A stretch of 64,000 nt of DNA from a virus: IMG/VR virus record IMGVR_UViG_3300045988_167906. One strand, given 5' to 3'. The translations under genes were made by a program, and so were the position numbers. This document shows positions 5,613 to 55,354 of the stretch, piece by piece. Under the pieces are notes generated by a model. It was not told the origin of the DNA, ran no database searches, and was given only the letters and a program-made list of their open reading frames with translations. Position 1 is the stretch's first letter. Each line of letters starts with the position of its first letter.

Positions 5613-5924
5613 ATGATTATGAACGCCGCTATTGTTAAAGCAATGAATTTGCAGGACTTGAACGACTACATAAATAACAAGAAGCCGGAAGAATTACAGA
5701 CCTTAATTGCATTAGCCAAGGAAAGAATTAACCAGTTAGACCAAGAGAAAGAAGCAAAATACATGGCCGCAATCATCAAGTCTGTTCAGGATTATCTGGA
5801 TAATGTTGGAGATTTGACATTCCATGTTGAGTATGAAGACGAAGATGGCCAGGACGCGGCTACTGACATCACCGTAGACAATCTGAATCCGCCTGCTGGT
5901 GGCAATGGAATCATTTATATTTAA
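5613..5924 (+). CDS. hypothetical protein (104 aa)
   Basis: Conserved GAAAGGAATTGATAAAAATG initiation context. Confidence 0.5.
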   Translation: MIMNAAIVKAMNLQDLNDYINNKKPEELQTLIALAKERINQLDQEKEAKYMAAIIKSVQDYLDNVGDLTFHVEYEDEDGQDAATDITVDNLNPPAGGNGIIYI

Positions 5925-12814: not shown

Positions 12815-12848
12815 TTTTACCCAGATATTATTTTTATCTGGGTTTTTT
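12815..12848. terminator. bidirectional terminator hairpin acccagatatt...atctgggt with T-run on + and A-run on -
   Basis: Perfect 8-bp stem flanked by oligo-T/oligo-A. It sits exactly at the end of the minus-strand GIY-YIG gene. Confidence 0.55.
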
Positions 12849-13191
12849 ATGTTTCATGATACCTATACGGCTATAATCTACCAGCTATATTTCCAATAGG
12901 CTAATACAATGTAATGAGTGCAAGCTCCATATCCTCTATATCTCTACGTTCTAACTATCTCTCTACTTTTACATCTTTAGTTTTAATCAATGGCTTATAT
13001 TCAACTACATCGCCTTTCTAAATAAGCTTATACACATATAATTCTTTACTATTTGTTCTCAATTTAATCTAATGTTCCTTAAACCGCTTCTCAAAATCCT
13101 ATGTACTACCTATATAATATAAACGCCCATTGACATAAATACCATATACTCCACCTTCAGTCATTTTCTTTAATGCTTTCTTACCCATCAT
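12847..13191 (-). CDS. GIY-YIG nuclease-domain protein (114 aa) containing six in-frame TAG codons
   Basis: Minus-strand translation gives MMGKKALKKMTEGGVYGIYVNGRLYYIGST(Q)DFEKRFKEH(Q)IKL.... This is a clean GIY-YIG motif only when TAG is read as an amino acid. The ORF ends TAA at the terminator. Confidence 0.7.
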
Positions 13192-13284
13192 CTATTCATA
13201 CTCTTCCTATGTGCATACCATATCAAATACCTTATTCTTAAATTCCCAGAATGGTTTATTTAATTTATCCTAATGCGGTCTAAT

Positions 13285-13437
13285 TATCTACATATAGTTA
13301 TTCTATACTACCCATACTCTCTTAAACCCTTTAGCAGAAGGATAATTCTTAATAGGCCCATCTAACTTCTCTATAATCTGTACTAATTCATCGTAATTCT
13401 TTATATTAGCACTAAATCCAAACTTATCAATTTTCAT
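13285..13437 (-). CDS. hypothetical small protein with one in-frame TAG
   Basis: ATG after an RBS. Low confidence. Confidence 0.25.
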
Positions 13438-13529
13438 TTCGTTTTTTCCTTTCAATTTTTGATTTCATTTTTCAATTCATTTCTTTACTGCCACAAGGTC
13501 AATACTGCCATTCAGGAACACACCCCGTT

Positions 13530-13790
13530 ATGTCCTATTTTCCCCGAAGGGGTAAATGGGACATTTTGTCTGTCCCAATGAGACATTTTGATAAAAATGG
13601 GACATTGGGACGGGACATCTTCTTTACTTCGCTTATGTCCCATATGTCCCAATGTCCCATTTTACTTAAAATTTTAAATAAAACATCCAGTGCTTATGTC
13701 CTAATGTCCCATTTTATCTATGATATTCCATTTAAAATGGGACATTTTTCATGTCCCATTTTTTTGAGACATTTATTTGCTTGTGTCTCA
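13530..13790. repeat. iteron-like cluster: at least 10 copies of ATGGGACAT / ATGTCCCAT (plus degenerate variants) in both orientations within ~260 bp
   Basis: Directly counted in sequence. Non-coding, between minus-strand genes. Confidence 0.7.
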
Positions 13791-14288
13791 AAAATTAAAC
13801 TCATCTTTCTAATTAACGAATGTTCCTTTTAACACTTTATCACTAATTTTCTTTATGCCTTCAGCATCCCCTATACCTTCACGACGACTTAATGTTTTTC
13901 TATTAACTGTTATATTATATAACTCCTAACACATATTTATTACATCATTCTACGTAGGTTTTTTATTCTTCTTTTTAGTTGCTTCAACTACAGCATTTAA
14001 CATCTACCCATCAGTAATTTTTTCTTTTTCTCCGCCTTTAGCCCCTGAAGCAGCCTTTTGTTCACTAACCTCTTTAGATTTATCAATAGTAAGTTTCATA
14101 GACTATAACAACATCATAATAACTCCATAGTCTTTATCATTCTCATCAGGTTCAATACCATACAATCCATAGTTAGTTAATGCACTATATAATTTATATT
14201 TTAATTCTACATCTTCATTCTATTCAATAGTTTCTCTCATATTAGCCCAGAAGGTAAATTTATCTTTATTCGGCTTTTCAACTGCCAT
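13788..14288 (-). CDS. hypothetical protein (166 aa) with six in-frame TAG codons, ends TGA
   Basis: A 501-nt minus-strand frame free of TAA/TGA in AT-rich DNA. RBS AAGGAGG precedes the ATG. Translation MAVEKPNKDKFTFWANMRETIE(Q)NEDVELKYKLYSALTNYGLYGIEPDEN... Confidence 0.55.
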
Positions 14289-14294: not shown

Positions 14295-14453
14295 TTACCT
14301 CCTTTGAGCTTCAACAAAATCCCTCATAAAATCATCATCAACCTTAAATATCCAACAATTATACTCCGGGTATTTAGGATTGGGCATAGTCTATATAGGG
14401 AAATGACCATTCTCCACCAGCTTTTCCATAACAGCTAATGAATAAATAATCAT
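14295..14453 (-). CDS. hypothetical small protein (52 aa) with one in-frame TAG
   Basis: TAG read-through makes the ORF end at TAA just where the next gene's RBS (AAGGAGG) begins. Confidence 0.45.
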
Positions 14454-14483: not shown

Positions 14484-14636
14484 TTACTTCTCCTTATCCA
14501 TATATTCTTTAATGGCTTTTCTAATCAATTGCGAAACACTCATATCATTTTCTTTACAGAATTCATCAATACGTGCCTTCTCTTCATCCTTAACACGAGT
14601 TGCAATATTATGATAGCCTTCACGTTTACTTGGCAT
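14484..14636 (-). CDS. ribbon-helix-helix (CopG/Arc-like) DNA-binding protein (50 aa)
   Basis: MPSKREGYHNIATRVKDEEKARIDEFCKENDMSVSQLIRKAIKEYMDKEK is an RHH pattern. RBS GAAAAGGAGAA. Confidence 0.6.
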   Translation of the reverse strand: MPSKREGYHNIATRVKDEEKARIDEFCKENDMSVSQLIRKAIKEYMDKEK

Positions 14637-14788
14637 ATATATTCTCCTTTTCTTTTATTAATCTACTATATATAAAAATATAAATAATATCTTTAACCGC
14701 GGTGGCCCAAAAAATTTTAAGTAATTTATAACAAGTTTAATTGATATAAGTTGAAATAAAAATATACCTATTGGTTTTATAAATAGTG

Positions 14789-14825
14789 GAAAAATATAAA
14801 AAAATTTGATAAAATATATATAAGA
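14789..14825 (+). promoter_or_regulatory. conserved phage middle/late promoter motif (AAAATATAAAAAAATTTGATAAAATATATATAAG)
   Basis: One of about 20 occurrences of TTTTATAAAAAAATATTATAAAATATATATA-like elements ~25-40 nt upstream of gene starts. Confidence 0.5.
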
Positions 14826-14851
14826 TAAAAGATAAGAAAGGAAAATCTTAA

Positions 14852-15319
14852 ATGCCAAATTATCGTGAACAGAATGGCGAAGTTGGTAGCTACAACAACT
14901 TAAAAGTCTGGGTCCTTAATGGTAATGAGTTCCAAAAGAAGCTACTCACCAAGGGCGGACTTAATGCTACTACTATCTACTGCCTTAAAGAATATGATCC
15001 CTATCACAAGCTGCTGCCCGACTGCATGTACGCCTATATGATTAACCCTAATGACCGCGACAACCTCTACTGCCTTGGCACTATGGGCAATTATGGAAAA
15101 GTGAATTTCAAGAAAAATATTGCCGCGTGCGAAAAATTCTCACTTGCCCCTAAGCCTACTCCTAAAACCACATTTGAAGTAGATACTACTAATTATGGTA
15201 ACGCCCCTACTCTTGCAACCATCAATGATATCCTTGCCGATATTCAAAAATGGAATACACAAATTAATTATGCCGACTATACTAAAACAGTAGATAAATA
15301 TTTGGAGGCTCTTACATGA
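14852..15319 (+). CDS. hypothetical protein (155 aa)
   Basis: RBS GAAAGGAAAATCTTAAATG. Confidence 0.5.
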   Translation: MPNYREQNGEVGSYNNLKVWVLNGNEFQKKLLTKGGLNATTIYCLKEYDPYHKLLPDCMYAYMINPNDRDNLYCLGTMGNYGKVNFKKNIAACEKFSLAPKPTPKTTFEVDTTNYGNAPTLATINDILADIQKWNTQINYADYTKTVDKYLEALT

Positions 15320-23460: not shown

Positions 23461-25584
23461 ATGAGTTATTTATTTACCAGTGAAAGCGTTTTTGCCGGTC
23501 ATCCTGATAAGGTTTGTGATTAGGTAAGTGATGCTATTCTGGATTATGTCCTCCAGCTTGATCCTGATGCACGAGTAGCTTGTGAATGTACTATTAGCCC
23601 AGGCATCTTCCATATTATGGGAGAGATCACAGCTAAAACAGAACAATCTATTCCTTATCAGGAAATTGCAAGAGAGACTTTAAGATTTATTGGTTATGAC
23701 AATGATGAAGCAGGATTTAACTGCGACACTTGTTCATATATTATTAATGTAGTAAATCAATCCCCTGACATCGCTGCGGGTGTTGATAGGGATGGTGCTG
23801 GCGACCAAGGCATGATGTTTGGTTATGCAACCAATGAAACAGAAAATTATATGCCTATCGCTCAGCAACTTGCTAACAATATCTCGGTCATTATGTTTAG
23901 TAAGTATAAAAATGATTTGCTACCTTGGGCATTACCTGACGGCAAATGCCAGATAACTGTCCAATACGATGATGATGGCAACTTTGAAGGGGTAGATACA
24001 ATTGTCGTATCGGCCCAACACAAAGACAAGTATAGTATTAAGGAAATAACGCCCGATATTACGAACATTTGTAATATTGCCCTTCAAGGTTATGCCATTA
24101 AAAAAGATTGTAAATTTTATATTAACCCAACAGGTAAGTTTGTGAAGGGCGGTCCCCAGGCTGATACTGGATTAACAGGACGTAAAATCGTTGTAGATAC
24201 ATATGGTGGCTACGCTCCGCATGGTGGTGGATGCGTAAATGGAGATACAGAATTTTTAACCCTTAATGGGTGGAAAAAAATCTCTGAATTTTCTTCAGAT
24301 GATAAAGTAGCTCAATGGGATGATGGCAAGATTTCATTTGTTAATGGTGAATTTGTAAGGCTACCTAAAACTAAAATGTATCATATTGCTACTAATAAAT
24401 CATTGGATATGATATTATCTGATAATCATAATGTTCTCTATAAAACATCTAAAGGAAATTATCAGAAGAAAACTTGTCAAGAAATTTTAGACTATTATTA
24501 TAAAAATAATGGGTTTAGAAGTATTCAAATCCCTATTTATTTTACTTATGATTTTAAGGATAATCCTGGCCTTGATTTAACTGATGATGAAATTAGACTT
24601 CAAGTAGCATTTTGTGCAGATGGTACTATTCTAAAAGAGAATTCAGGATGGACTGGAAGAATTAGAGTTAAAAAGAAATATAAAAAAGAGGCATTAAGAA
24701 AACTATTCGCTTCAACAGGACTTGATTATAAGGAAACCCCAGATAATGATTGTAGTATTTTTTGGTATAAGCCTTCCTTCGTAAATAAAAAAATGAATGA
24801 ATGTTTATCTAAATGCAATTTGCATCAAGCTCAAATAATTGCTGATGAAGTAATTAAATGGGATGGAGATAGAGATTGTGTTTTTAGAACCACACATAAA
24901 GATGAAGCCGATTTTATTCAATTTATTTTTATGGCAGTTTATGGCACATCTTCTCATTTTTCTATTGATGATAGAATAGGTGAAACATTCAGTGAAAATT
25001 ATACTCGTAGAAGTATTTGTTATGAAGTAAGACAAGGTAAATATAAATATTCTACTCCATTCAGAACTTCAGGTTCTTCAATTGCCAATCTAACTATTGA
25101 AGATTATGAAGATAATGATCCTTGGATGTATTGTATTAATGTACCTTCTCATAATCTTGTATTAAGATATAATAATCGAGTTTTTATTACAGGCAATTGT
25201 TTTAGCGGCAAAGACCCCAGTAAGGTAGACCGTAGTGGTGCATATATGGCACGCTATGTAGCTAAAAATCTTGTAGCTTCTGGCGTTTGTGATAAATGTA
25301 TGATTCAAGTTGCTTATATCATTGGACAGACAGAACCTGCATCTATTGATATTAATTGTTTTGGCACAGAAAAGAAACCTATTGCTGAAATTCTTGATGC
25401 AGTTAATCAGACATTTGATTTTGCACCGCGTAGTATTATTCATAAATTTGATTTAAAGCATACTCGCTATTTACCCTATGCTTGTTTTGGTCATTTTGGT
25501 CGTATTGAATGCAATAGTCCTTGGGAACAACTTGATAAAGTAGACGAATTAAAAACAATTTTTGATTTTGAAAAGGAGAACTAA
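23461..25584 (+). CDS. metK: S-adenosylmethionine synthetase (MetK) interrupted by a 322-aa intein; TAG codon at the conserved Gln
   Basis: MSYLFTSESVFAGHPDKVCD(TAG)VSDAILD aligns with E. coli MetK [34 protein letters not shown] and (after the intein) CFSGKDPSKVDRSGAYMARYVAKN are the other MetK signature motifs. Confidence 0.85.
24232..25197 (+). mobile_element. intein inserted in the MetK HGGG|AFSGKD P-loop (starts Cys, ends Asn, +1 Cys)
   Basis: MetK homology is continuous across the deletion of 24232-25197. The insert begins CVNGDTEFLTLNGW and ends ...RVFITGN followed by CFSGKD. Confidence 0.7.
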
Positions 25585-31006: not shown

Positions 31007-32671
31007 ATGACAGATTTGAGGACTCTTATTCCAGAAGAAGAAAAGAACCTGCTGCACGATTATATTAAAGAGTACCTTCATTCTGATAATTACTGTACAG
31101 TAGATGAAATTAATCATCTTCTGCGGTTTTGGGCTGTCGAAAAGCCCGACCTGTATAAGCTGTTGGGCAACAACCTGATGGTTAAAGACCATATTGCTTA
31201 TCAGGCATCTGAAGAGGATTTGATGGATAAGTTCAGTGAAATGTATGAAGAAATTTATAATAATCCTGAATTAGCAAACGTTAAAAAATTCATTGACTCT
31301 TACGAGCAGATTACTAATATTTATTATTCTTGGATGGATGCCACTCTTGATAAGGATGAACGTGTTAATTGTTGTAGCATGATTGAGCATTGCCTTGATA
31401 GTGAATCTCTCGTAGCCAATAAAAATGTGTATATGTTTGATTGGGGTCGCAAATCTGTTACTATTCGCCGTGGTCCGCATGCAGATACTTCAAAGCCGCT
31501 TGAACTGAAGAGTGATATGAAGTTGATGCGAATGATGGCTAAAATTGTCGATTGGTTTGAGCTGGACAAAGAAGCATTTGAACAGTTCCGTATTCTTCAT
31601 TCGCGTGTTTTGAATGATCGTATGATTAATGCTAATATTACATTGTCTATTCATCCGCTTGACTATCTTACTATGAGTGACAATGCTTGTGATTGGGAGA
31701 GCTGTATGAACTGGTATCAGGGTGGCGATTATCGTCTTGGTACTGTTGAAATGATGAACTCCCCTGTTATCCTTGAAGCATATGTTGAGTCTGAGCATCC
31801 TTATTGTCCTATTGATCGTGATAATAGAACTTGGAGCAATAAGCGTTGGCGGTGTCTTTATATTGTTAATAAGGATATTATCACTGAAATCAAACAGTAT
31901 CCTTATAATAACATTTATCTGCGTGACTATGTGCTGAATAAGATTAAGCAGTTGGCTGAACAGAATATGGGCTGGCATTATGATGATAAAATGTATGAGG
32001 TTTGGCAGAACCAGAATAATGATACTGATTTTGGTCAGGTTTATATCCGCATGAGGACCGGAGCTATGTATAATGATTATTATGATAATCATTATGCTTA
32101 TATCAATCCAGAAGTCAAAGAAGTAGAAGTTTGTTATTCTGGTGTAGCTGAATGTATGTGTTGCGGCAAAGGCTACGAAGCTGACCCGAGTGGAAATGTA
32201 GATGCATTTGTAGAATGTGATAAAGTCGTATGTGCAACCTGCGAAGGCAAAGTCCAGTGCGATGATTGCGGTGCTTGGATTGATAGTGAAGATGCTTGGT
32301 TTTGTAGTGAAGATGGTGCAACTTATTGTAGTTGGTGTGCAGAGGGCCGCACCCAGGTTTGTAGCTGCTGCGGAGAAACTAAATGGCTTGATTATGATTT
32401 CAAGAAGCAGGCTCTTCCATATATGTTTGAAGTAAAAACTCCTAATGGTAAGCATCGTCGAGATATTGGAAATCCGATTGATGTCTGTGATGATTGCTAT
32501 GAAGATTATTGTTTCGATGATGTACCAAAGGAACCAGACTTGTGGGGAGATTTTCAATATATTGATGTTGACAAGGTAGATAAGAAGGTATGGGAGCCAT
32601 TTCTGTCCCTTGAAAGAATTGCTGATGCCAAGGTGCGGCTAAAGGCAACTTACCCTGATGATTATGTTTAG
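31007..32671 (+). CDS. paralog family C member 1 (HPLDYLTMSDN...WESCMNW...YR.GT.EMMNSP core plus C-terminal multi-CxxC zinc-ribbon array)
   Basis: Paralogous to 38101-39744 and 42339-43664. Ends at a TAG, so the true end may be 32725. Confidence 0.55.
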   Translation: MTDLRTLIPEEEKNLLHDYIKEYLHSDNYCTVDEINHLLRFWAVEKPDLYKLLGNNLMVKDHIAYQASEEDLMDKFSEMYEEIYNNPELANVKKFIDSYEQITNIYYSWMDATLDKDERVNCCSMIEHCLDSESLVANKNVYMFDWGRKSVTIRRGPHADTSKPLELKSDMKLMRMMAKIVDWFELDKEAFEQFRILHSRVLNDRMINANITLSIHPLDYLTMSDNACDWESCMNWYQGGDYRLGTVEMMNSPVILEAYVESEHPYCPIDRDNRTWSNKRWRCLYIVNKDIITEIKQYPYNNIYLRDYVLNKIKQLAEQNMGWHYDDKMYEVWQNQNNDTDFGQVYIRMRTGAMYNDYYDNHYAYINPEVKEVEVCYSGVAECMCCGKGYEADPSGNVDAFVECDKVVCATCEGKVQCDDCGAWIDSEDAWFCSEDGATYCSWCAEGRTQVCSCCGETKWLDYDFKKQALPYMFEVKTPNGKHRRDIGNPIDVCDDCYEDYCFDDVPKEPDLWGDFQYIDVDKVDKKVWEPFLSLERIADAKVRLKATYPDDYV

Positions 32672-32750
32672 TTTAAATTCTTGCCAAAATTGAATACTCG
32701 AAAATTTATAAAAAATTTGATATAATATATATAGAAAGGATGGGAGAGAT

Positions 32751-38100: not shown

Positions 38101-39744
38101 ATGACACCTTATGAAGCATTGACTGCACAAGATAAGGAATATATTACTGAATATATTGAAACATGGGGTGGCGTTAATTCCCCAATTAAACTCAAAGCAT
38201 CTCTTGATTATATCCTTCGAGAATGGAATAAGAGTAAACAAACTCTATTTAATATTTTTGGCGAAAAGTTAATGTTGGAGAAGGAAATCCAGGTTGAAGA
38301 TGGAGATAACAAAAAAGTAAGAGAAGTTAATGAGTATCTCTATAGCACTAATCCTGGTATCAATTTTATTACAAATCTTTGTAGATTATTTGAATCTGAT
38401 ACTACTTATTTTGAAAATACTTATGCAACAAGGCATGCGATATATAATTTAACTCAAGCTTATCAACTTTTTACTAATAGAGTTGTTAAAGGATTTACTT
38501 ATCACAATAAAGATGGTAAAGTAGTTAAAGTTCCAGAAGGAGCTAAGGTAATGAAAGTTCTTCAGAAAATGGCTAAAGAATTTGATTTGCCTGATTTTGA
38601 AATTTTTCGCAATCATGTTTCACGTATTACTGAAGTACGTAAATCTAAAATTAAATTTACTTTATCTATTCATCCCTTGGATTATATGACTATGAGCGAT
38701 AATATAAATGGTTGGGAAAGTTGTATGAACTGGACTCAAGGGCCAGGCTCTTACCGTGCAGGCACTATTGAAATGATGAATAGTCCATTAGTTGTTGTAG
38801 CATATATTACTACTAAACCTTATTATCCAGCAAATACTTCAATTGAGTGGACTTCCAAAAGTTGGAGAGAATTGATTATTGTTCATCCAAAAGCTATTTG
38901 TTCTGTAAAATCTTATCCTTATTACAATATTGCATTTGATAAAGCTCTTGTTAATTGGCTTGCTAATTTGGTTGAAGAAAAAACTGAATGGCGTTATAAC
39001 AGAAAAAAGCCACAAGAAAGTTTAGATAGTTGTTCCTATATCGAAGCTTGGCAAGATAAAGAAGATAAGGATAATCGTTTCCTGTTGGATTTTGAAACAA
39101 ATGAAATGTATAATGATTTTGGTAATACAGAAAATTATGGAATTTTTTCAATTAATCCACCAGACAATAAATATCGTACATTCGCAATTAATTATTCTGG
39201 TTTAATGACTTGTATGTGTTGTGGCGAAAATGGTTATTGGTCTGATGACACTGAAATGGTGGTTTGTGAAGATTGTGATCCACCCACTTATTGTTATTGC
39301 TGTGGTGAACGAGTTAACGTAAATGATGCAATTGAAGTAGATGGTGAATGGATTTGTGAAGATTGTTATCATGATTTACATAGATGCTTATGTTGCGAGG
39401 ACGTTCATTTTGATGAAGATTTCACTCCCGTATTCATTGGACATATTGACAATCAAACTATTAATATTGATTATGATGAGCATTATATTTGTAATGAATG
39501 TCTTGCCAATAAAGAATATTTAAAGTATCTAGGAGATACTGATATTAGAGCTGAAACAATTCGATTGGATGGCGGTCCTTATTATGGTATGGTGGCTCTC
39601 TTAATTGAAGAAGATGATTTAAATGTAGAGGCTAAAAAGATAATTTCTAATGATCCTTATTCTACTATAATTACTGATTATACTTATGCTATTCGTCGTT
39701 ATCCTGAGCGTTTTTATAGTTACAATAAGTCAATTGCGATTTAA
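38101..39744 (+). CDS. paralog family C member 2
   Basis: SIHPLDYMTMSDN...WESCMNWTQG...YRAGTIEMMNSP plus CMCCGENGY...CEDCD zinc ribbons. Confidence 0.55.
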   Translation: MTPYEALTAQDKEYITEYIETWGGVNSPIKLKASLDYILREWNKSKQTLFNIFGEKLMLEKEIQVEDGDNKKVREVNEYLYSTNPGINFITNLCRLFESDTTYFENTYATRHAIYNLTQAYQLFTNRVVKGFTYHNKDGKVVKVPEGAKVMKVLQKMAKEFDLPDFEIFRNHVSRITEVRKSKIKFTLSIHPLDYMTMSDNINGWESCMNWTQGPGSYRAGTIEMMNSPLVVVAYITTKPYYPANTSIEWTSKSWRELIIVHPKAICSVKSYPYYNIAFDKALVNWLANLVEEKTEWRYNRKKPQESLDSCSYIEAWQDKEDKDNRFLLDFETNEMYNDFGNTENYGIFSINPPDNKYRTFAINYSGLMTCMCCGENGYWSDDTEMVVCEDCDPPTYCYCCGERVNVNDAIEVDGEWICEDCYHDLHRCLCCEDVHFDEDFTPVFIGHIDNQTINIDYDEHYICNECLANKEYLKYLGDTDIRAETIRLDGGPYYGMVALLIEEDDLNVEAKKIISNDPYSTIITDYTYAIRRYPERFYSYNKSIAI

Positions 39745-41259: not shown

Positions 41260-42258
41260 ATGGGTAAAAAAGTTTTAGTTCCTGATTTTACTGAAAATTG
41301 TAGAGGGCTTTTGGAAGGGCTATTCAAGATTAGTGAAGTAGGTCTTTTAAAAGCTCTTGGTGATTTTGTATCTAATAAATATTCTAATGTAGAAATTACA
41401 GAAGATTATGTATACGCTGAAGGCAATATTCCTGTAATGCTTATCGCACACGTAGATACTGTATTTAGACAGCCAATTCGTCAATTTACTTATAATGAGA
41501 AAAGAGCTGTTTATAAAGGCAAGGAAGGTCTTGGAGCAGACGATAGAGCAGGTGTTTTTGCGATTATTCAAATTTTGCGTAAGAAGTATAGACCTTATGT
41601 CCTTTTTACAACAGATGAAGAAATGGGCGGTTATGGTGCCCATATGTTCATTGAAGCACATCCAGTAGCCCCAGATATTAAATATATGATTGAGCTGGAT
41701 AGAGCTGGTGAAAAAGATTGTGTTTTCTATGAATGTGAAAATTTTACATTTGTAGATTATGTTGAAAGTTTTGGTTTTAGGCAAGCAATTGGATCATTTA
41801 CAGATATTAGTATTATTATGCCTGAATGGGAAATTGCCGGAGTAAATTTATCAGTTGGCTATCATCATGAACATACTCAAAATGAAGATTTACATATTAG
41901 AACATTGTATAATACAATTAATAAAGTATGTAAAATGCTTGATGATATCGAAAATGCAGATAAATATAAGTTTATTCCTAGTAAGGAATATCTTCAGTGG
42001 ATTACATTAACTAATAAATATCATATGCCTTATGATTTTGATGATGATAAACTTCTTAATTGTAGTTTTTGTAATCAGTTGTATTATGAGTGGGAAGATT
42101 TTCCTCTTGATATTGATGGAGTAAAAGTTCATGTATGTCCTGAATGTTTGGCCCTTGATCCTAATATTCATCAATGTGAAAAGTGCTATAATTTATTTTA
42201 TTCAAATAATATGAGAGAAAGAGTATGTGATAAATGTCGAGTCCCTGTTGTAATTTAA
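41260..42258 (+). CDS. M20/M28-family zinc metallopeptidase-like protein with C-terminal zinc-ribbon tail
   Basis: IAHVDTV, GADDRAGV, TTDEEMGG resemble M20 (ArgE/DapE/PepT) metal-binding motifs. C-terminal CxxC x4. Confidence 0.5.
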   Translation: MGKKVLVPDFTENCRGLLEGLFKISEVGLLKALGDFVSNKYSNVEITEDYVYAEGNIPVMLIAHVDTVFRQPIRQFTYNEKRAVYKGKEGLGADDRAGVFAIIQILRKKYRPYVLFTTDEEMGGYGAHMFIEAHPVAPDIKYMIELDRAGEKDCVFYECENFTFVDYVESFGFRQAIGSFTDISIIMPEWEIAGVNLSVGYHHEHTQNEDLHIRTLYNTINKVCKMLDDIENADKYKFIPSKEYLQWITLTNKYHMPYDFDDDKLLNCSFCNQLYYEWEDFPLDIDGVKVHVCPECLALDPNIHQCEKCYNLFYSNNMRERVCDKCRVPVVI

Positions 42259-42338
42259 ATGAAATTAAAGAACAAGTAAAGAAGGTTATTGCCTATTCAT
42301 AGGGGCTGGACATTAACCTTTTAAATATTGATAAATTA

Positions 42339-43664
42339 ATGAATGATTGGGAAGAGAATAAATGCAAATTTTATAGTAGGCTTCCTGGTAATAAATTAAT
42401 TTATCAAAGCCATACACCTATTACAATGTCTATTTCAGAAGATGATAAAAAAGCTGAATTAGATTGTTTTATTGATAATATTCGTTGGCGTTATGGCTTA
42501 TTTGAATTAAGAGATTTTGTTGAAAATAATAGAAAAAATTTTTATAATAATATTTTAAATGAAGATTATTCAATGAATAATGGAACTGTTATTCCAAAAG
42601 GAATGAAAATAATTAAAGCATTTAAATATTTTGTAGAAGATAAGGAAATTCTTACTGAAATACAAGATAAAGCTAGTATGCTTATTCAAAATACAAAAAT
42701 TAGTGGATATTTTTGTATGTCAGTTCATCCATTGGATTATCTTAGTTTGAGTGAAAATACACATAATTGGCGGTCATGCCATGCCCTTGATGGAGAATAC
42801 CGTGCTGGTAATTTATCTTATATGGCAGATAATTGTACAATTATATGCTATATTAAGAGTGAACATGATGCGGTTTTACCTAGATTCCCAGATGATGTAC
42901 CATGGGCAGATAAGAAGTGGCGTATGCTTCTTCATGTATCTGATGATGACACTATGGTTATTTCAGGTCGGCATTATCCTTATGAAAGTAAAGGATTGCA
43001 AGATTTTGCTCTTGAGTTATATGAAACATTTTTCGGGCAAGGATACCGTTTTACTGATTGGTGTCATGAAAAATATAATACATTTACAATAAATGATAAA
43101 ATCTTTTCTAATGATAGCCGTTTATTGCCTACTGGATATGTAATGACTCCAGATATTAAGGTTATTGTTGACCCAAAAAATCCTTTACATTACAATGACC
43201 CTCTTCATTCTACTGTATATGACTATTGGTTCAGTATTGCTTATAGTGAACCTTATTGGCATGAAGAAGGTATTCCGCAAGATAAATTAATTCTTCCAAG
43301 AACTCGTACCACTACTAAAGTTAATATAGGACATGATGTAAAATGCTGTATTTGTGGTAAAAATGATTGTGTTTTAACAGATACGATGCTTTGTATTGAT
43401 TGTGAACTTAAATATGGTACAGAAGAAACAGAAGATTTTACTTTCTGTAGAGAGTGCGGTAGACGTATTTATATTCCTGAAGCAATATCATTAGATGATG
43501 ATGATGGTTATGTATGTCGCAATTGCGGAGATAATTATTAGATATGTGATAATTGTAATATGTATTATGATAAAAAAGATTTAATTTATGATGAAGAAAA
43601 CAATGCTTACTACTGTGAAGCTTGTTATGATGAAATTTTATTTGATAGGGAGAATAATGAATAA
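42339..43664 (+). CDS. paralog family C member 3, extended through TAG 43539
   Basis: VHPLDYLSLSEN...W.SC...YRAG core. Read-through adds CDNCNMYY...CEACYDE, another CxxC pair like its paralogs. Confidence 0.55.
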
Positions 43665-43972
43665 TGGCAAAAGGTAGTATTGCTAAAGATGCTGTTGTAG
43701 AAAAAATTGCAGAAGCATTTGGCGAAGATTTCCTCGGATCTTATGATAAAAAGTATTATGTGCGAGCTAAAGAAAATGGACAATATATTCAGATTGCAAT
43801 TAGTCTGACTTGTCCAAAAACTCCAGTTGAATCTTTTGGTTCTATGGATTTTGGTAATAATGAACTTAATTTTGAAGATGGAGCAACAATTCAGCCTGCG
43901 AAAAAGGCTACAGAAATTAGTCCAGAAGAAGAAGAAAATTTAAAAGCTTTAATTGAAAAGCTTGGTTTGTAA
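43664..43972 (+). CDS. hypothetical protein (102 aa)
   Basis: Followed by terminator gagaaagtca/tgactttctc. Confidence 0.45.
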   Translation: MAKGSIAKDAVVEKIAEAFGEDFLGSYDKKYYVRAKENGQYIQIAISLTCPKTPVESFGSMDFGNNELNFEDGATIQPAKKATEISPEEEENLKALIEKLGL

Positions 43973-44079
43973 GAGAAAGTCAAATTGACTTTCTCTTATT
44001 TTTATGTTATAATTATTTATATAGGGCATATTATATTAATTAAATAATTAAATTTCTTATATAAGAAAGGAATAAAAAT

Positions 44080-44361
44080 ATGAAGAAGATTATAATTCCT
44101 CAAGAAGAAGTAAATTATCTTTAGAAATTAAATTATGAAATTGAAGCTAGAAAAAATTTATGTCAATTTTTAATTAGACAAAATATTAGAAATAAAGCTT
44201 TTGATGATTATCATAATGAGTATATAGAATTATTTGCTGAATATGAATTAGCTAAATTAGAATTAGAAAATAATTATATTAAACCAGTAATTGGAAATCA
44301 AACTTGTAATTGGAATTTAGATTTTTAGACAAACGAGGTAAATATTGATGTTATTTCCTAA
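44080..44361 (+). CDS. small protein (93 aa, two in-frame TAGs) preceding the radical-SAM gene
   Basis: RBS AAAGGAATAAAAATATG. Open to TAA only with TAG as sense. Confidence 0.4.
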
Positions 44362-45688
44362 GATAGTTAATATTCCTGAAGAATTTTCTGATTTTATAAG
44401 TCGTTTATATTCTAATGATTGCTTAAATTCTTAGGCTGTATTTACATTAACTTTTTAGGTTACAGATGATTGTTGTCTAAATTGTGTTTATTGTTATCAA
44501 GGACATAAAGGAAAACATAAATTATCCTTTAATACAGCTAAATAGATGATTGATTAGATACTAACAAGAGACAGTAAAGTTATTAATTATATTGACTCTT
44601 ATAAAATACCAGGAGTAGTAATAGAATTTATAGGTGGAGAGCCATTTTTAGAAATTGAATTAATTGATTAGATTACTGATTATTTTATTAATAAAATGAT
44701 TGAATTGCGGCATCCTTGGGCCACTAAATATAAAATTTCAATTAGTTCTAATGGTATTTTATATTTTGAACCAAAAGTACAAGAGTATATTAAAAAAAAT
44801 AATGAAAATTTAAGTTTATCAATTTCTATTGATGGAAATAAAAAATTACATGATGCTTGTAGAGTTTTCCCTGATGGTAGTGGTAGTTATGATAAAGCAT
44901 TGTCCGCCGCATTACATTATAGCCATAATTATAACAAATGGATCGGGAGTAAAATGACTATCTCTCCATTTAATATAGATTATTTATATGACGCTGTTTT
45001 AGAAATGATAAACAATGGTTATAGTCAAATCAATCTAAATTGTGTGTATGAAAAAGGTTGGGAACTTAACCATGCCACTACATTATATTATTAGTTAAAA
45101 AAAATTGCTGATTATTTATTAAATAATGATTTGTGGGATAAAGTTTATTTATCTATTTTTTATATTAATGATGGAAGTAAAAATTTATCTAATGATAATT
45201 GGTGCGGCGGGAATGGTCGTATGTTAGCCTTAAATTGGAAAGGTAAATATTATCCCTGTTTACGTTATATGGAAGATAGCATAAGTAATCAGCCAGAATA
45301 TTATATTGGAGATATTTATTAGGGAATAGGCCAAGATAATTTAACCATCAATAGATTAAAAGATTTATCTGAAATAACAGTTATTAGTCAATCTCCTCAA
45401 AAATGTTTAGATTGTGAAATTTCTGGAGGATGCTCTTGGTGTACAGCTTATAATTATCAAGAAACAGGTAATGTTAATAAAAGAGTTACTTATATTTGTG
45501 ATATGCATTATGCTATAGTTCTAGCTTCTTTATATTATTTAAATTCTATTTTAAAAAAAATAAACTCGAATAAACGATTTAAATTTAATGGAGATATGGA
45601 AAAAGCATTAAAAATTATCTCTTAGGATGAATATAATATAATAAAGGAGGCAATGACAAATGAAAATAGGCACGACAATAACTTCTGA
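44348..45688 (+). CDS. radical SAM / SPASM-domain peptide-modifying enzyme (anSME/sactisynthase-like) containing eight in-frame TAG codons
   Basis: DDCCLNCVYCYQ (CxxxCxxC), FIGGEPFL (GGE SAM motif), C-terminal CGGNGRMLALNWKGKYYPC...CLDCEISGGCSWC (SPASM). Listed ORFs 44696-45094 and 45131-45322 are two fragments of this single frame. Confidence 0.8.
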
Positions 45689-46310
45689 TAGATTCAATGA
45701 ATTAAAGAAAAAAATAAAGGCTGAATGTTTACGTCGTAAATATATAGGTAGTGTAAGTTCATATGGAGGGACTTCTTATGATTATACTACTTAGCCTAAT
45801 AATGGAAAAGTTATTTCAAAAGAACATATAACAAAACTGGTAGAACCTATGGCGGCAATAAATATTGAAAATCAGAATGAAAATATAAATGTTATTAAAG
45901 ATGATGATTTAAGTACATTAGAGGCAAAAATTACAGCTTATCAAGCTATGGGATTAACTGATTCGAATACTGGATGTTCAGCTTATTGCACTGGATTATG
46001 TTCTACTAGTTGTAGTGAAAGTTGTGGAGTACAATGTCAGGGAACTTGTTTAGGCAGTTGTAAGAATACTTGCCAAGGAGGCTGCCAAAACACTTGCAGA
46101 GGCGGATGTCGAAGCAGTTGTAGTGGCAGTTGTGATGGATGCAGTGGTTCTTGCTCAGGTGGATGCCAGACTGGGTGTAGCGGATGCAGCGGTAGCTGTA
46201 CAAGACATTGTGCTAACGATTGTACTGGATTGTGTGGAGGAAGTTGTTCTGGATTATGCACAAGTTGTACTGGCACATGTAGTGGAACTGGTAGGAATGA
46301 ACCATTATAA
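45660..46310 (+). CDS. RiPP-like precursor: ~105-aa leader plus ~110-aa core of 35 cysteines in (C-x3)/(C-x2) repeats; one in-frame TAG
   Basis: AGGAGG RBS then ATG 45660, in frame (through TAG 45792) with listed ORF 45849-46310. Core is CSAYCTGLCSTSCSESCGVQCQGTCLGSCKNTC..., ends TAA. Confidence 0.65.
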
Positions 46311-46428
46311 TTTAAAAACATTTATTGAAAATATATATAATTGTAAAATATATTATATGTATCTTATACAAAATAATATTTTATTTTGTATAAGTGATTA
46401 TAAAAATATAAACTTTCAAAAATATGAT

Positions 46429-46998
46429 ATGGATATTTAGATTTTATCTATTTATGAATATTTATTTCAAAAGTATATTTTACATAAAGATATATTAAAA
46501 CAATATAAAGGTATAGAATTATATAAAATTATGGAAATTCAAGATAAAATTTTTATTAATAGATATAAATTATTATTGTAGATTATTAATAATAATTATA
46601 ATTTTGATAATTAGTTAATATACACTGATTTTAATAATTTTAATTTTGAACAAAATATTAGTTATATAAATTATTGTTTAAAATTACTATTTAATAATTT
46701 TAAAAAAATAGATAAACAATTTTGGAAAATTTTAGATTAGATTTATTTTTTAATTAATGGTAAAACTAATTTATTTTTATTGTTGGGAAATTTTTATTTG
46801 AATAAAAGTAATTTATAGCAATTTACTGAAGAAATAAAAAAAATTCCTGGAATTAAAGAATAGCTCTCTTTTAGTTATACAGCTTTAAATTTAGCTATTG
46901 AAATTGATAAAGTTGCAGAAAATAAAAATTATCTTAATGAATTAATTGAAATTATTGATAATCATTCACAAGAAAAAATTTATAAATTTGATATTTAA
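46429..46998 (+). CDS. hypothetical protein (189 aa) with six in-frame TAGs in extremely AT-rich DNA
   Basis: A 570-nt frame free of TAA/TGA despite ~85 percent AT. Ends TAA. Confidence 0.45.
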
Positions 46999-47267
46999 TA
47001 AAAATTAATATATAATATATATACAAAATAAAGAAAATAAAGACTTTAACAGCAAAGAAATGGACAGTAAATCCGTCGCGAATGCTACGCAGGTTCGAAT
47101 CCTGCCCTCCCCACCACTATATGGCGGAGGTAGGGAAGCGGTTAAACCCAGCGGAACCAAACCAAATAAGTCTTGTTTGAATAAAATAATTATTTGATTT
47201 TTAATAAAAAATATTATATAATATTTATATGAAAAGAGAAAGGCTTTTACAGCAACTTAAACTTTTT

Positions 47268-47342
47268 TCCGTGGTCGAATAACTGGATAATTCATCAGAG
47301 TTAATTCTGAAAATAAGGATTCAAATTCCTTCCTTGGAGCCA
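47268..47342 (+). tRNA. tRNA-like gene with non-canonical 6-8 nt anticodon loop centred on TTAA; CCA encoded
   Basis: Acceptor tccgtgg/ccttgga (6 of 7), D stem gaat/attc, anticodon stem tcaga/tctga with loop gttaat, T arm aagga-ttcaaat-tcctt, discriminator G plus CCA. Late promoter directly upstream. Confidence 0.4.
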
Positions 47343-47433
47343 AGTATAAAAAGTCTTGGGTAAATTTCTTAATTTGAAAAAATTAAAAAAATATAATATA
47401 ATATATAAGTAATCAATAAGAAATTAAATAAAT

Positions 47434-47582
47434 GCTCTCGTAGCTCAATTGGTCAGAGCCGGCGACTTATCCAAAATTAGTTTAAATGGTAAAATAGTTT
47501 ATGCGCAAGAAAGATGTAAGTTCAAATCTAACATTTTGGGCCAAATCGCCAGATGTGGGTTCAAATCCCGACGGGAGCACCA
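47434..47582 (+). tRNA. tRNA interrupted by a ~78-nt insertion after the anticodon loop; the insertion itself has tRNA-like ends (ccaaaat...attttgg-g-cca, 47471-47543)
   Basis: Outer acceptor gctctcg/cgggagc plus A plus CCA, D arm gctc-aattggtca-gagc, anticodon stem ggcga/tcgcc split by the insert, T arm with ttcaaat. Confidence 0.4.
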
Positions 47583-47608
47583 TATTCCAATAGAAAGGAA
47601 TTAAAATA

Positions 47609-47848
47609 ATGAAGTTGACAAATATTAAGCAGGTTGAAGATTTTATTTCAGCAGTTAATCGTGCTCATAGTAATGTATGGCTGGTTAGTCCGCAGGGCGA
47701 TAGATACAATATGAAATCTGCACTTTCACAGTATATTGCACTTGGTGCATTACTTGGTCAGCATGGCGATGAACTGGAACTTTTTTGTGATAGTAAGCAA
47801 GATGAAGGTTTATTTATTGAATTTTTTGTTCGTCATTCTGAAGTTTAA
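47609..47848 (+). CDS. hypothetical protein (79 aa)
   Basis: GAAAGGAATTAAAATAATG initiation motif. Confidence 0.45.
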   Translation: MKLTNIKQVEDFISAVNRAHSNVWLVSPQGDRYNMKSALSQYIALGALLGQHGDELELFCDSKQDEGLFIEFFVRHSEV

Positions 47849-47903
47849 TAAATTTGATTTTTAATAAAAATATTATTATATTATATAGAGAGTGAGGGAA
47901 AGA

Positions 47904-48863
47904 ATGACTATTATTGAATTATTTGCGGGAATTGGGACATAGATTTCAGCTTTGGTTAAAATTGATCCAAATATTAGATCAATAGGTATTAGCGAAATTG
48001 ATGAACGACCATTGAAAGCATATAAAGTTTTGAATGGTGAATATAATAATTTTGGTGATATCACAAAAATTGATATTTTACCCTATGCAGATATTTGGAC
48101 TTATTCTTTCCCTTGTACTGATTTATCTATTGCAGGGAAGCAAGAAGGTTTTCAAGGAAAAAATTCTTCATTAATTTATGAGGTATATCGTCTCTTGCTT
48201 TCTTCTCCAAAGCCAAAAATTCTTTTAATGGAAAATGTGGCCAATATTTGTAATAATACTTTTATGCCAAAATTTCAAGAGTGGATTAATAGTTTAGCTG
48301 AATTAGGTTATGTATCTAGCTGGAAGAAAATAAAAGCTTATGAATATGGCGGAGCAACTATTAGAGATCGTGTATTCATGGTTTCAGTAATTTCTCCTTT
48401 AAAAAAGTTTATTTTCCCTTTAGCTGAAAATGTTAAAACTACTTTAAAAGATTTTTTAGAGCCAATTAACGAAGAATATTTCATTGATAGTTATGATGGC
48501 CCAAGTGATATTACTACACCATATTATAATGGAGCTAAAAAACTCTGTGATTATAAAAATGGTGGTCAAGGAAATCGAATTTATTCTATATTTGGGCAAG
48601 GAGTTACATTAACTGCTTCTGGTGGAGGAAAAGCCGGATCAAGCGGTGGTTTGTATCTTCGTAATAATAGTATTTATAAACTTACTCCAATTGAGATTTG
48701 TAAAATAATGGGTTGGACTAAAGCAGAAGCAGAAAAGATTTGTTCTGTTTTAACCCCTAGAGAAGTGGGTTTTTGCTTGGGCAATGCCATTGATAGAAAT
48801 GTGTTAATTCATATTTTTAAAGGGATAAAGGAACAATATTATGATGAATTGGGAGAAAAGTGA
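47904..48863 (+). CDS. DNA (cytosine-5)-methyltransferase; TAG at codon 13
   Basis: Motif I ELFAGIGT (upstream of the TAG), motif IV FPCTDLSIAGKQEG (PC motif), motif VI LMENV. Confidence 0.75.
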
Positions 48864-49529: not shown

Positions 49530-49606
49530 CTCATTTGTATGGGACAGTAGCTTACGAGGTCGGAGCATTGGTCTGAAAAACCAAAGGATGGAGGCTCGAT
49601 ACCTCC
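49530..49606 (+). tRNA. tRNA-Phe (GAA)
   Basis: Acceptor gggacag/ctgtccc, anticodon loop ctGAAaa, CCA encoded. Late promoter motif at 49480-49515. Confidence 0.8.
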
Positions 49607-49616
49607 CTGTCCCACC

Positions 49617-49690
49617 AATTGGTCTTACACATGGGGTTTCCGATTTGAACTAGGCAGATTAGTCACCTGCCGTTGGCAATAGACCAATTA
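49617..49690 (+). ncRNA. structured RNA candidate bounded by an 8-bp inverted repeat (attggtct / agaccaat) with internal hairpin ggcag-attagtcac-ctgcc
   Basis: No ORF. Co-transcribed position inside the tRNA array. Confidence 0.25.
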
Positions 49691-49835
49691 AAAATAAACT
49701 GAGGCAAAGGGAAATCGGGTAGTTATGATGAACTTCATAATGAAATCCTCTTGTAATCAAGCTAATTGGGAGAGAGGTAGCACGGGAACGGGGAGAAGCG
49801 TGCTATAAAAGGTGAAATACTTCTTTCCACCATAA

Positions 49836-49900
49836 GCCGGTGTAGCCGAATGGCATAGGCGAATGGAATTGAACTGAAAATTTTTTGGTTCAATTCCATT
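49836..49900 (+). pseudogene. 5' part of a tRNA gene (acceptor gccggtg, D arm gcc-gaatggcata-ggc, then a 13-bp perfect hairpin) whose 3' part lies at 50773-50800
   Basis: gccggtg pairs with caccggt of the downstream T-arm/acceptor/CCA fragment. The HNH ORF lies between them. Confidence 0.35.
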
Positions 49901-49947
49901 AATGAATAATTTTTAATTTCTAATATATTATGAAAGGAGAGATTGTT

Positions 49948-50760
49948 ATGGCTCGTTCAGATATTTTAGAAAAAGAAAAAGAAATTCGTTAGTGGATAAA
50001 CGAAGAAAAATCTAAACGTTATATATGTGAATAGTTGCATTGTAAACCTGAAACTTTAAATTCTTATTTGGAGAAAATGAATATTGAATATAAGGGATAG
50101 CCTTATAAAAAAGGATAGAATAAAAATCCTCGATGTTATAAGCCAGCTATTTATTATATTGATAATCATAAGTATATTAGCTCTTCTGTTTTAAGACAAA
50201 AATTAGTAAAAGATGGATTGAAAAAAGACAAATGTGAAATTTGTGGTATTTCTATGTGGCAAGGAATTAAATTACCTTTAGAATTACATCATAAAAATGG
50301 AAACCATTTTGATAATGATTTAAATAATCTACAAATTTTATGTCCTAATTGTCATTCAATTCAAAATGGAAATAGTGGAGCAAATATCGGTAAATACGCG
50401 GGATTGCTGGAATAGGTAGACAACTCATCTTTAGACGGTGAGGCCGACAGGTGTGAGGGTCCGAGTCCCTCATCCCGCACCAATCATATTCAAAAGAAAA
50501 ATTATTGTTGTGATTGTGGAAAAGAGATATGTTTAAAAGCTATTAGATGTAAATCTTGTGCATCTAAATTTAGACAAAATTCTAAATCTCCAGATAGAGA
50601 AATTTTAAAAGAATTAATTAGAACTACACCATTTGTAACTATAGGGAAAATGTATGAAGTTTCTGATAATGCTGTCAGAAAATGGTGTAAAAATTATGAT
50701 TTACCTTATTAGTCATTAAAAATTAAAAAAATTTCTGATGAAGATTGGAAAAATATTTAA
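49948..50760 (+). CDS. HNH homing endonuclease with N- and C-terminal HTH-like domains; six in-frame TAGs
   Basis: CEICG...ELHHKNGNHFDNDLNNLQILCPNCH is an HNH motif. A single 813-nt frame runs from the AAAGGAG RBS through six TAGs to TAA. Listed ORF 50218-50415 is an internal fragment. Confidence 0.65.
50398..50482 (+). other. tRNA-like element (gcgggat...atcccgc-A-CCA, T arm gaggg-tccgagt-ccctc) embedded in frame inside the HNH ORF
   Basis: A 7-bp perfect acceptor pairing, T arm and CCA are all present. D and anticodon arms do not fold. Confidence 0.3.
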
Positions 50761-50772
50761 TATATAAGGTGT

Positions 50773-50800
50773 GAAGGTTCGAATCCTTTCACCGGTACCA
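50773..50800 (+). pseudogene. 3' tRNA fragment (T arm gaagg-ttcgaat-ccttt, acceptor caccggt, A, CCA) immediately after the HNH gene
   Basis: See 49836-49900. Confidence 0.4.
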
Positions 50801-51293
50801 ACAGTGAAGTAGTAGCTATACTCATTATAATCAAGGCTCGGTGGTTGGTGGCTCCATCGTTATGTAAATAAGCCATATGTATATTACTTCTTGGTGTAAT
50901 GGAAGCATACTGCCTGAAAGAGGCGGAGGTATTGGTTCGATCCCGATAGAAGGAGTAATTAAAGCTAGGAAATGATAATCGCCTAAATAAATAAAGGATT
51001 ATTATTAAAGGTTATTTAGATTAAGGAAGCGGTTGAAGTTATTACTTACTTGATTATAAAATAACATGACCGCAAGACGAGTGTTTGAAGCTTGTCTATA
51101 AACAAATTCTTCATATGTTGTCTTTTTATACTTTCTCTTTGGTTGTTTCTTGACATATAAGTAAAAACGGAAAGGGAGTTAAAGGTTTAGCTATAAAACC
51201 GGTTTGTTTTTAATAAGATTTTTAAAATTAGGTGACAAAATCTTATTTGAGTGACGCTGCTCAGGAGGGTCCGGAACCTCTGAAATGCGATAT

Positions 51294-51370
51294 GCGGTTG
51301 TAGCTCAGTTGGTAGCAGCATTTGCCTTTTAAGCAAAGGGTCGGGAGTTCGAGCCTCCCCAACCGCACCA
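51294..51370 (+). tRNA. tRNA-Lys (TTT)
   Basis: Acceptor gcggttg/caaccgc, anticodon loop ctTTTaa, T arm gggag-ttcgagc-ctccc, CCA encoded. Confidence 0.8.
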
Positions 51371-51740
51371 GGTCAAGTTTGAGAAATTTCATAAAGCATC
51401 GCTGACGTTAAATGGCACTTATATGAAAACGCGTAAGTAATATAAGATAGCAAAATTCTCGTAGTTCATCCTATTAGAGAATCTTAAAGAGTAATGGCAA
51501 GGTCATATCGCGGGAGACCGTGCGTATGAGATACCAATAAAGGTAGCACATCTTGTGTTGAACAAGATAAAAGATGGAAAGGATACCTGCCATACTTGGA
51601 CGGTAAAAGAAGGCGTTGAATGTAATCGAAAAATATTCCGTTGGTTCTTAGGGGAGCGACGTAACAGTGAAACCCGAGGTTTGAGTTACCTTGTCCAAAC
51701 GCTATGTATAGTCAAAGTCTAGGCAACAAGGTTTTAATTT

Positions 51741-51817: not shown

Positions 51818-51820
51818 TAA

Positions 51821-52374: not shown

Positions 52375-52378
52375 ATAT

Positions 52379-55348: not shown

Positions 55349-55354
55349 TTATAT

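Follow-up and report, generated by a model that had tools for sequence, protein, structure and literature searches.

We describe a dense array of short repeats in a 64,000-nucleotide stretch of viral DNA (IMG/VR record IMGVR_UViG_3300045988_167906), hereafter called the window. The array begins at the stop codon of a minus-strand gene whose 166-aa product combines an N-terminal DUF6291 domain with a C-terminal helix-turn-helix (HTH) domain. We propose, at a probability of roughly 60%, that the array is an iteron-type replication origin and that the DUF6291-HTH protein is its initiator or 'replisome organiser'. The original prediction, made from the DNA letters, had offered a replication origin or an operator bank. 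The origin part is the better supported, through comparative context and not through the arguments given at the time, and the operator bank is the weaker rival. Probably, the origin idea was right and a different protein reads the repeats. We infer from sequence both that the DUF6291-HTH protein binds the repeats and that an origin fires at this site.

The exact 9-mer ATGGGACAT/ATGTCCCAT was found seven times in the window and every copy lies within 13556-13759, compared to 0.64 copies on average, and never more than 4, in shuffles. The 7-mer GGGACAT occurs 11 times, and nine of these copies are within 13558-13757. Allowing one mismatch in the 9-mer adds four sites in the block, at 13530, 13578, 13610 and 13644. 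When sites were scored as GGGACAT with at most one mismatch and with the GACA core required to be intact, 14 were detected in the 281 bp of 13520-13800 versus 38 in the remaining 63.7 kb (binomial P = 1.5e-21). Two weaker units, TGGGAC (13606) and GTGTCTC (13784), bring the total to about 16. The prediction of a dense array of at least 10 copies was therefore confirmed. Direct and inverted orientations are both present as claimed, and the tandem triplet quoted in the prediction is located at 13635-13660.

Read along the minus strand, the units follow the order of a weak inverted pair, a palindrome, a direct pair, an A+T-rich block, a triplet, a spacer, an inverted triplet and a group of four units (Table 1). 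The core corresponds to an inverted repeat (I2) with 27-nt arms that are 89% complementary and 34 nt apart. In gene orientation its first arm consists of three direct GGGACAT units, and the position of this arm is kept in all relatives. Folded as a single strand, the array forms three hairpins (z = -8.8 versus shuffles), and this strong folding is explained by the inverted arrangement of the units. A scan of the array against Rfam returned sub-threshold hairpin-type matches only. We dropped the reading of the array as an RNA element because no Rfam family was matched at threshold and because the units occur in both orientations, which favours a role at the DNA level. Scans of the array for intrinsic terminators and promoters gave nothing above background, and no T run follows the G+C hairpin at 13543-13553. 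In a distantly related locus, L031, the equivalent place also has a hairpin, with another stem sequence. The leader between the array and the next gene carries the motif ACGGGGTGTGTT (13518-13529, minus strand), which the group of phages around the window shares with L031. A second motif, TTCGCTTCGCTCA, was seen just 3' of the arrays of the relatives L026 (about 5755-5775), L033 and L037.

The DUF6291 (PF19808) match covers aa 11-88 of the 166-aa protein and is above the gathering score; the same profile is matched by 24 of 36 distant relatives. For its structure we used the AlphaFold2 model built from the deeper alignment (pLDDT 90) and not the one from a shallow alignment (pLDDT 70). In this model the N-terminal domain is a three-helix unit, for which no informative fold match was obtained in PDB or BFVD. 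The C-terminal domain is predicted to adopt a TetR/homeodomain-like, three-helix HTH fold and not a Nu1-type winged helix. The assignment of this domain as an HTH is supported by other members of the family, which match Pfam models of the HTH_7, HTH_23, HTH_29 and Sigma70_r4 types at the equivalent place. A sequence search of PDB revealed no relative of the protein, and BFVD returned other DUF6291 proteins only. No relative was detected by tblastn against phages or by a scan of a genome collection, no homologue was found with one DUF6291 query against 72,556 plasmids, and no near-identical DNA was present among GenBank phages. The literature searched does not mention the DUF6291 family.

The module is found at the equivalent place in gut-metagenome phage contigs, the near-complete ones being about 185-191 kb. 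These relatives share the order of a ribbon-helix-helix (RHH) gene, a small open reading frame (ORF), the DUF6291 gene, a gap of 280-370 bp and a GIY-YIG gene, and the neighbours include RNA ligase and chorismate mutase genes. Among the close relatives the N-terminal half of the 166-aa protein is nearly invariant and the C-terminal half falls into two main types with 25-35% identity. Where the C-domain is of the other type (B), the unit GGACAAAT(G/C) at 9-bp spacing replaces the GGGACAT of type A, and both the layout of the array and the spacer (AAGCTGAAGAAAGAAAA) are kept. When the window is compared with L001 in sliding steps, identity is 92% or more across the flanks and the DUF6291 N-domain, falls to 42-55% precisely where the C-terminal domain and the array lie (about 14070-13520) and recovers to 90% at 13513-13453. 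A second, independent block of low identity covers the GIY-YIG gene. Comparison with L016 showed an array that is 92-100% identical and a GIY-YIG gene that is not kept. The RHH protein is identical at 49 of 50 residues across both repeat types. The HTH domain and the array thus travel together, and the RHH and GIY-YIG genes do not travel with them. A spacer of the pattern AAGC(N)AAG..AGAAG is kept at 35-63% protein identity (L001, L018, L021, L024, L026, L031, L033 and L037), and a 25-40 bp A+T-rich block is present at the equivalent place in relatives.

An exhaustive search that used no profile identified 44 relatives. A subfamily at 30-46% identity shares the two-domain build, a low-complexity tail (GQNRDK, DKTNVP, MSQCP) and a conserved terminal FNF. 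In L026, L031 and L037, which like L032 and L035 have proteins at 35-46% identity, the array itself encodes this tail, as GGGACA(A/T) units start in the 3' end of the gene and extend beyond it. The array likewise starts in the 3' end of the gene in L032 and L035, whose contigs stop within the array; we did not use these ends as physical termini, as assembly breaks at a hypervariable region are the simpler explanation. The array of L033 comes after the stop codon. The core of the distant relatives is made of 3-4 direct units, a purine-rich spacer and inverted units, for example AAGCGAAGAAAGAAGAG (L026) and TAAGCTAAAGAGAGAAGAATTA (L031). No GIY-YIG gene follows the array in L026, L031 or L037. 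An RHH gene is located upstream in L026, L032 and L037, and its beta-strand residues are different even though the GGGACA core persists; in L033 the RHH position is taken by an HTH protein, and no RHH gene was found in L031. Because the RHH and GIY-YIG genes vary or are absent, the DUF6291-HTH gene and the array are the constant partners. We favour the DUF6291-HTH protein over the RHH protein as the reader of the repeats, since it always accompanies the array and its DNA-binding domain is exchanged with the array. The original prediction had cast the RHH protein in this role. That assignment is not supported: the RHH protein is near-identical where the unit differs, and in more distant relatives with the GGGACA core its beta-strand is quite different or an HTH protein takes its place.

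The DUF6291 family as a whole is found among replication genes. We collected 66 other IMG/VR DUF6291 loci with a called downstream gene using two sub-alignments, as the broad alignment was too diverse as a query. The next gene encodes a helicase loader or a DnaB helicase in 33 of the 66, although many of the loci are closely related to each other, so that this and the following counts overstate their independence. The next gene product is a G39P-like 'loader and inhibitor of G40P' in 17 loci (PF11417, E = 1.9e-14), an IstB/DnaC-like AAA+ protein in 14 (PF01695, above cut-off) and a DnaB helicase in two. In L027, too, an IstB/DnaC-like gene comes next and repeats are present within the DUF6291 gene. 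The C-terminal part of the L027 protein matches annotated 'replication initiation protein' and DUF4373 proteins and the product of a gene beside a primase/helicase gene. In the protein P0042, DUF6291 is fused to a DnaD domain, and the C-terminus of P0039 (DDDDIPF) resembles the tail of single-stranded DNA-binding protein. In cultured phages, the DUF6291 gene of Nitratiruptor phage NrS-3 directly follows a CII-like gene, which is the position of lambda O, and that of Riemerella phage PJN03 directly precedes a primase/helicase gene. Right after the DUF6291 domain, many genes of the family carry an 8-mer, often AAGCAAAC, that is repeated 4-6 times every 10-11 bp. These copies are probable in-gene iterons. 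In L040-L110 they (codons ~64-120) encode a K-Q-rich linker.

Table 1. Features of the repeat array and of the surrounding module (window coordinates; strand given where one applies)
Feature	Position	Strand	Details
Whole repeat array	13530-13795		About 16 GGGACAT-type units, both orientations
Weak inverted GAGACA pair	13761-13794		Repeat I23; overlaps the DUF6291-HTH stop codon (13788-13790)
Perfect palindromic pair, AAAATGGGACAT, 5 nt, ATGTCCCATTTT	13734-13762		Repeat I19; 12-nt arms, 100% complementary
Direct unit pair, ATGTCCTAATGTCCCAT	13696-13712	-	Read from the sequence, repeat and site scans
A+T-rich block, candidate unwinding element	13660-13683		95% A+T over 13660-13679; adjoins core arm 1
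Core arm 1, three tandem units at 8-9 bp spacing	13635-13660	-	Plus strand: ATGTCCCAT, ATGTCCCAA, ATGTCCCAT
16-nt spacer between the facing arms, AAGCGAAGTAAAGAAG	13619-13634	-	Purine-rich in gene orientation
Core arm 2, three units in opposite orientation	13597-13618	+	ATGGGACAT, TTGGGAC, ACGGGACAT
Proximal group, four units (13530, 13556, 13570, 13578)	13530-13586		Surround the G+C hairpin CCCCGAAGGGG, 13543-13553
Conserved leader, array to GIY-YIG gene	13438-13529	-	90% identity between types A and B despite diverged flanks
RHH protein, 50 aa, first module gene	14484-14636	-	No in-frame TAG; Pfam RHH_1 29.1 bits (cut-off 20.5)
Small ORF, 52 aa	14295-14453	-	One TAG; conserved in relatives; no Pfam match
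DUF6291-HTH protein, 166 aa	13788-14288	-	Six in-frame TAG; Pfam DUF6291 34.5 bits (cut-off 27.2)
GIY-YIG protein, 196 aa	12847-13437	-	Eleven in-frame TAG; Pfam GIY-YIG 26.7 bits (cut-off 22.6)
Divergent intergenic region, presumed module promoter/operator	14637-14851		Between the RHH gene (-) and ORF 14852-15319 (+)

The proposed origin could work as follows. A promoter in the divergent region 14637-14851 would drive an operon of the RHH, small-ORF and DUF6291-HTH genes, which the RHH protein would probably autoregulate. The three-helix HTH domain of the DUF6291 protein would bind the GGGACAT units, and the conserved N-terminal domain and the C-terminal FNF tail may serve oligomerisation or the docking of a partner. 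Protein bound to the two facing triplets would bracket the conserved 16-nt purine/pyrimidine spacer. The duplex would then open at the 95% A+T block beside the spacer, and a helicase could be loaded there. The HTH domain and the array would evolve and recombine as one specificity cassette, and the downstream GIY-YIG gene may be a separate, mobile insertion resembling a homing endonuclease. The roles of the spacer, the A+T block, the RHH protein and the FNF tail in this scheme are those that we infer. The RHH protein is probably an operon regulator and not the reader of the array; it has sub-threshold matches to the ORF56 copy-control, RepB-RCR_reg and 'replication regulatory protein RepA' models.

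Several observations weigh against an origin with this initiator. Lambda O, G38P, DnaA and plasmid Rep proteins show no homology to the 166-aa protein in sequence or in fold, and when it was compared with the initiator families Phage_rep_O, Phage_rep_org_N, DnaA and Rep it matched none. The units are only 8-9 bp long and thus shorter than classical iterons. The gene that follows the array, here and in the closer relatives, is a GIY-YIG gene or a small ORF and not a helicase loader or helicase, and the 64-kb window showed no replication machinery. A function is assigned to DUF6291 from gene neighbourhood and domain fusions, in loci many of which are close relatives. The original prediction had named GC skew as a check. 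The skew is positive on both sides of the array, dips over the inverted genes only and shows no switch at the array; because it follows gene orientation, it is uninformative on the location of an origin. The six in-frame TAG codons of the proposed initiator gene suggest suppression-dependent translation and delayed expression. They do not exclude an origin, however, because the use of an alternative code in replication genes is reported to be variable (Borges et al., preprint).

A different function that had to be weighed is DNA packaging, in which the array would be a pac- or cosB-like site, the DUF6291-HTH protein would act on the repeats as a small-terminase-like subunit and the cut would fall in or near the central spacer. 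This explanation, which we consider quite unlikely, deserves attention because arrays of the same unit precede a small-terminase-like gene elsewhere. An IMG/VR scan for arrays of the 9-mer returned 14 loci (L002-L015; G+C 0.42-0.58), with a Serratia phage as the one GenBank relative found. Each of these loci has 5-10 GGGACAT units immediately before a small-terminase-like HTH gene, which is annotated as small terminase in the Serratia relative. The next gene in L010 encodes a gpA-type large terminase. These arrays, on prophage-like contigs, are probably cosB-type terminase recognition arrays that use the same 7-mer as the window. Examples are found at 588-800 of L010, where a probable portal gene also follows, and at 9915-10065 of L006, and a conserved stretch, CACGGGCATTGCGCGC, lies beside the units in L002-L015. 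The pac site of phage P1 has short repeats flanking a central region, which resembles the layout of the array, and pac sites are often located within terS genes. Late expression of TAG-dense genes would also fit packaging, as would the 10-residue stretch VNRKTLSRR of the DUF6291-HTH protein, which matches the terminase HTH (BLAST E = 0.03). This stretch is, however, a common HTH motif. We rejected homology to the L002-L015 terminase HTH, as hhalign gave a probability of 1.8% and the fold class is different, the modelled C-domain being TetR/homeodomain-like and not of the Nu1 type. Moreover, no terminase or portal gene is located near the module here or in relatives, and the only match to a TerS family is a weak, sub-threshold one in the distant relative P0039, with none for the window protein. 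A fixed end at the array is not indicated, because the distance of the module from the contig ends differs between two ~190-kb contigs. Finally, DUF6291 genes stand beside those for helicase loaders, helicases or primases in half of the loci examined and in cultured phages, and NrS-3 has a separate annotated terS.

Two further explanations involve the neighbouring genes. The array might be an operator bank or a centromere that is coated by the RHH or HTH protein and that silences or terminates transcription of the GIY-YIG gene, autoregulates the module or mediates partition. Direct and inverted units of 7-9 bp are bound by the RHH proteins omega (pSM19035) and ParG, the array is flanked by two co-oriented genes and placed upstream of the GIY-YIG start, and the module begins with an RHH gene in the window, L026, L032 and L037. 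Nevertheless, we regard an operator or centromere as unlikely. The RHH protein is unchanged between repeat types A and B, its beta-strand varies widely where the GGGACA core is shared, and it is replaced by an HTH protein in L033 and was not found in L031. The array and its core spacer also persist without a following GIY-YIG gene. A simple operator would not be expected to have about 16 sites, a deeply conserved spacer that is not itself a repeat and a place in the 3' end of the gene for its own binder, and the context of the family points to replication. The partition system raised by the original prediction is not supported, as no ParA/ParM-type gene is found among the ORFs of the window or, in relatives, among the called genes and Pfam labels of the module and its flanks. 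Alternatively, within a homing-endonuclease cassette, the GIY-YIG enzyme could use the repeats as its target or regulatory site. The GIY-YIG domain is intact and weakly, below threshold, like a group I intron endonuclease family, and phages that are otherwise near-identical vary strongly in this region. Array type and GIY-YIG variant assort independently, however, with a type A array beside a GIY-YIG gene more like that of type B phages in L016, and the array is present without a GIY-YIG gene in L026, L031 and L037. A homing cassette is therefore highly unlikely to account for the repeats.

An origin read by the DUF6291-HTH protein would have a close counterpart in lambda O and ori-lambda with the O-P gene pair, where the initiator-binding repeats lie inside or next to the initiator gene, in the part coding for a linker or tail. 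Repeats within the gene right after the DUF6291 domain follow this arrangement, and the gene order is like that of lambda O-P and SPP1 38-39-40. The array shares with ori-lambda the position in or next to the linker- or tail-coding part of the proposed initiator gene and an adjoining A+T-rich block. As in lambda O, one domain co-varies with the repeats and would set specificity, and the other is conserved. A loader gene follows in many DUF6291 loci, and the NrS-3 gene occupies the O position after cII. In contrast to lambda O, the DNA-binding domain is C-terminal here and N-terminal in O, and the proteins have no sequence or fold similarity. The array has about 16 units of 8-9 bp in both orientations compared to four 19-bp iterons in lambda, and no loader gene follows it in the window.

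The pMV158 copG-repB and IncFII copB-repA-oriR modules have a small regulator gene before the initiator gene and an origin just downstream of rep. The present module is similar in its small RHH-type gene before the DUF6291-HTH gene, the array downstream and the sub-threshold copy-control matches of the RHH protein; it differs in that all these matches are below curated cut-offs and in showing no sign of a plasmid lifestyle. At SV40 site II (GAGGC pentamers) and in archaeal ORB elements, short inverted units face a central region with an A+T tract adjoining. The likeness to these is in layout alone and the proteins are unrelated. The omega (pSM19035) and ParG (TP228) sites are alike in the dense packing of 7-9 bp direct and inverted units, but in the present module the repeats change without a matching change in the RHH protein, and a partition ATPase is absent. 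The cosB/Nu1-type small terminases are connected through the GGGACAT arrays of L002-L015 upstream of a small-terminase-like gene, but without protein homology and in a different genomic context. In Bacillus phage SPP1, G38P is the origin-binding replisome organiser, oriL lies in gene 38, G39P is the loader and G40P the helicase (literature on this system: PMC6316719, PMC5737612). The SPP1 system is similar in the location of the origin within the organiser gene and in the G39P-type loader (PF11417) that is next in 17 of the 66 DUF6291 loci. It differs in that DUF6291 has no match to Phage_rep_org_N or G38P and that the window phage lacks an adjacent loader or helicase gene.

With standard stop codons there is no long ORF in the region of the module, and reading through TAG yields four co-oriented minus-strand genes. 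As predicted, the array lies between minus-strand genes (ORFs 13788-14288 and 12847-13437), and both are intact only when TAG is read through. The module is transcribed opposite to its flanks and is TAG-recoded, as had been stated, and the plus-strand flanking genes have no TAG. The RHH gene placed by the prediction at 14484-14636 has its Pfam RHH_1 match and lies upstream of the array, but it is not adjacent to it, as the genes 14295-14453 and 13788-14288 intervene. Codon 62 of the 166-aa protein, a TAG, aligns with an invariant Gln of the homologues, including that of L026, whose gene has no in-frame TAG, and this supports the reading of TAG as Gln. No suppressor tRNA with a CTA anticodon was found among the 14 tRNA genes of the window (cluster 49541-55442). 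A tRNA-Leu(tag) call at 50398-50482 falls within a TAG-readthrough ORF, 49930-50760, that looks by eye like an HNH endonuclease, and one of the two calls may be wrong.

The divergent region 14637-14851 shows 90-100% identity among the ~190-kb relatives and 100% over about 14700-14797; sequence lying just 600 bp from it is hypervariable. A protein of 52-69 aa is always encoded between the RHH and DUF6291 genes, with homologues in L026, L032, L033 and L037 and the shared pattern (V/I)IYSL..R..L...GF........P....CW.F. The domain of the GIY-YIG protein spans aa 95-180 (Pfam match aa 95-133), and its GVYGIY, YIGS, KRF/W..EH, E in MELALI and GNIAG elements are kept in seven relatives. We also tried the N-terminal domain of this protein as a partner that co-varies with the array, and it does not. 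By its sequence, the GIY-YIG protein looks like a free-standing homing endonuclease outside the core system.

Elsewhere in the window, TAG density follows low-G+C accessory genes more than obviously late genes. Positions 43000-48000 form an island of 25-27% G+C with very TAG-dense ORFs, including ORF 44348-45688 (8 TAG), with a CxxxCxxC motif that by eye resembles radical-SAM enzymes, and ORF 46135-46998 (6 TAG). The S-adenosylmethionine synthetase gene at 23461-25584 (+) matches all three Pfam domains, with the C-terminal domain split into two stretches by an intein-like insertion of ~320 aa. Three plus-strand ORFs (31007-32725, 38101-39744 and 42234-43664) encode paralogues of ~500 aa with Cys-rich C-terminal regions, and a Pfam scan of one of them gave no match.

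As a genetic element, the array would belong to the known iteron-type phage origins whose initiator is encoded in cis; what is new is the uncharacterised protein family and the unusual, deeply conserved layout of the core. More tentatively, and with odds that we place below even, DUF6291 proteins could form an unrecognised class of phage initiators with sites in or after their own tail-coding DNA, which would serve both as coding sequence and as origin. The HTH domain and the array of these gut phages would then form an exchangeable cassette that defines replicon 'specificity types' among genomes that are near-identical otherwise, and the deeply conserved purine spacer would be a new initiation core. 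The comparative evidence provides a concrete proposed function for DUF6291, an uncharacterised domain that many phages have, namely that of an origin-binding replisome organiser acting upstream of G39P-type or DnaC-type loaders. Protein-DNA co-evolution is cleanly illustrated in nature by the tight co-exchange of HTH domain and repeat type among these near-identical genomes. This exchange may mark replicon specificity, in the sense that co-infecting strains compete or are incompatible. For uncultured gut phages of about 190 kb with recoded stop codons, hardly any origin or initiator has been assigned. Locating an origin and its reader would anchor work on replication and its timing in such phages and would help in building vectors or reporters.

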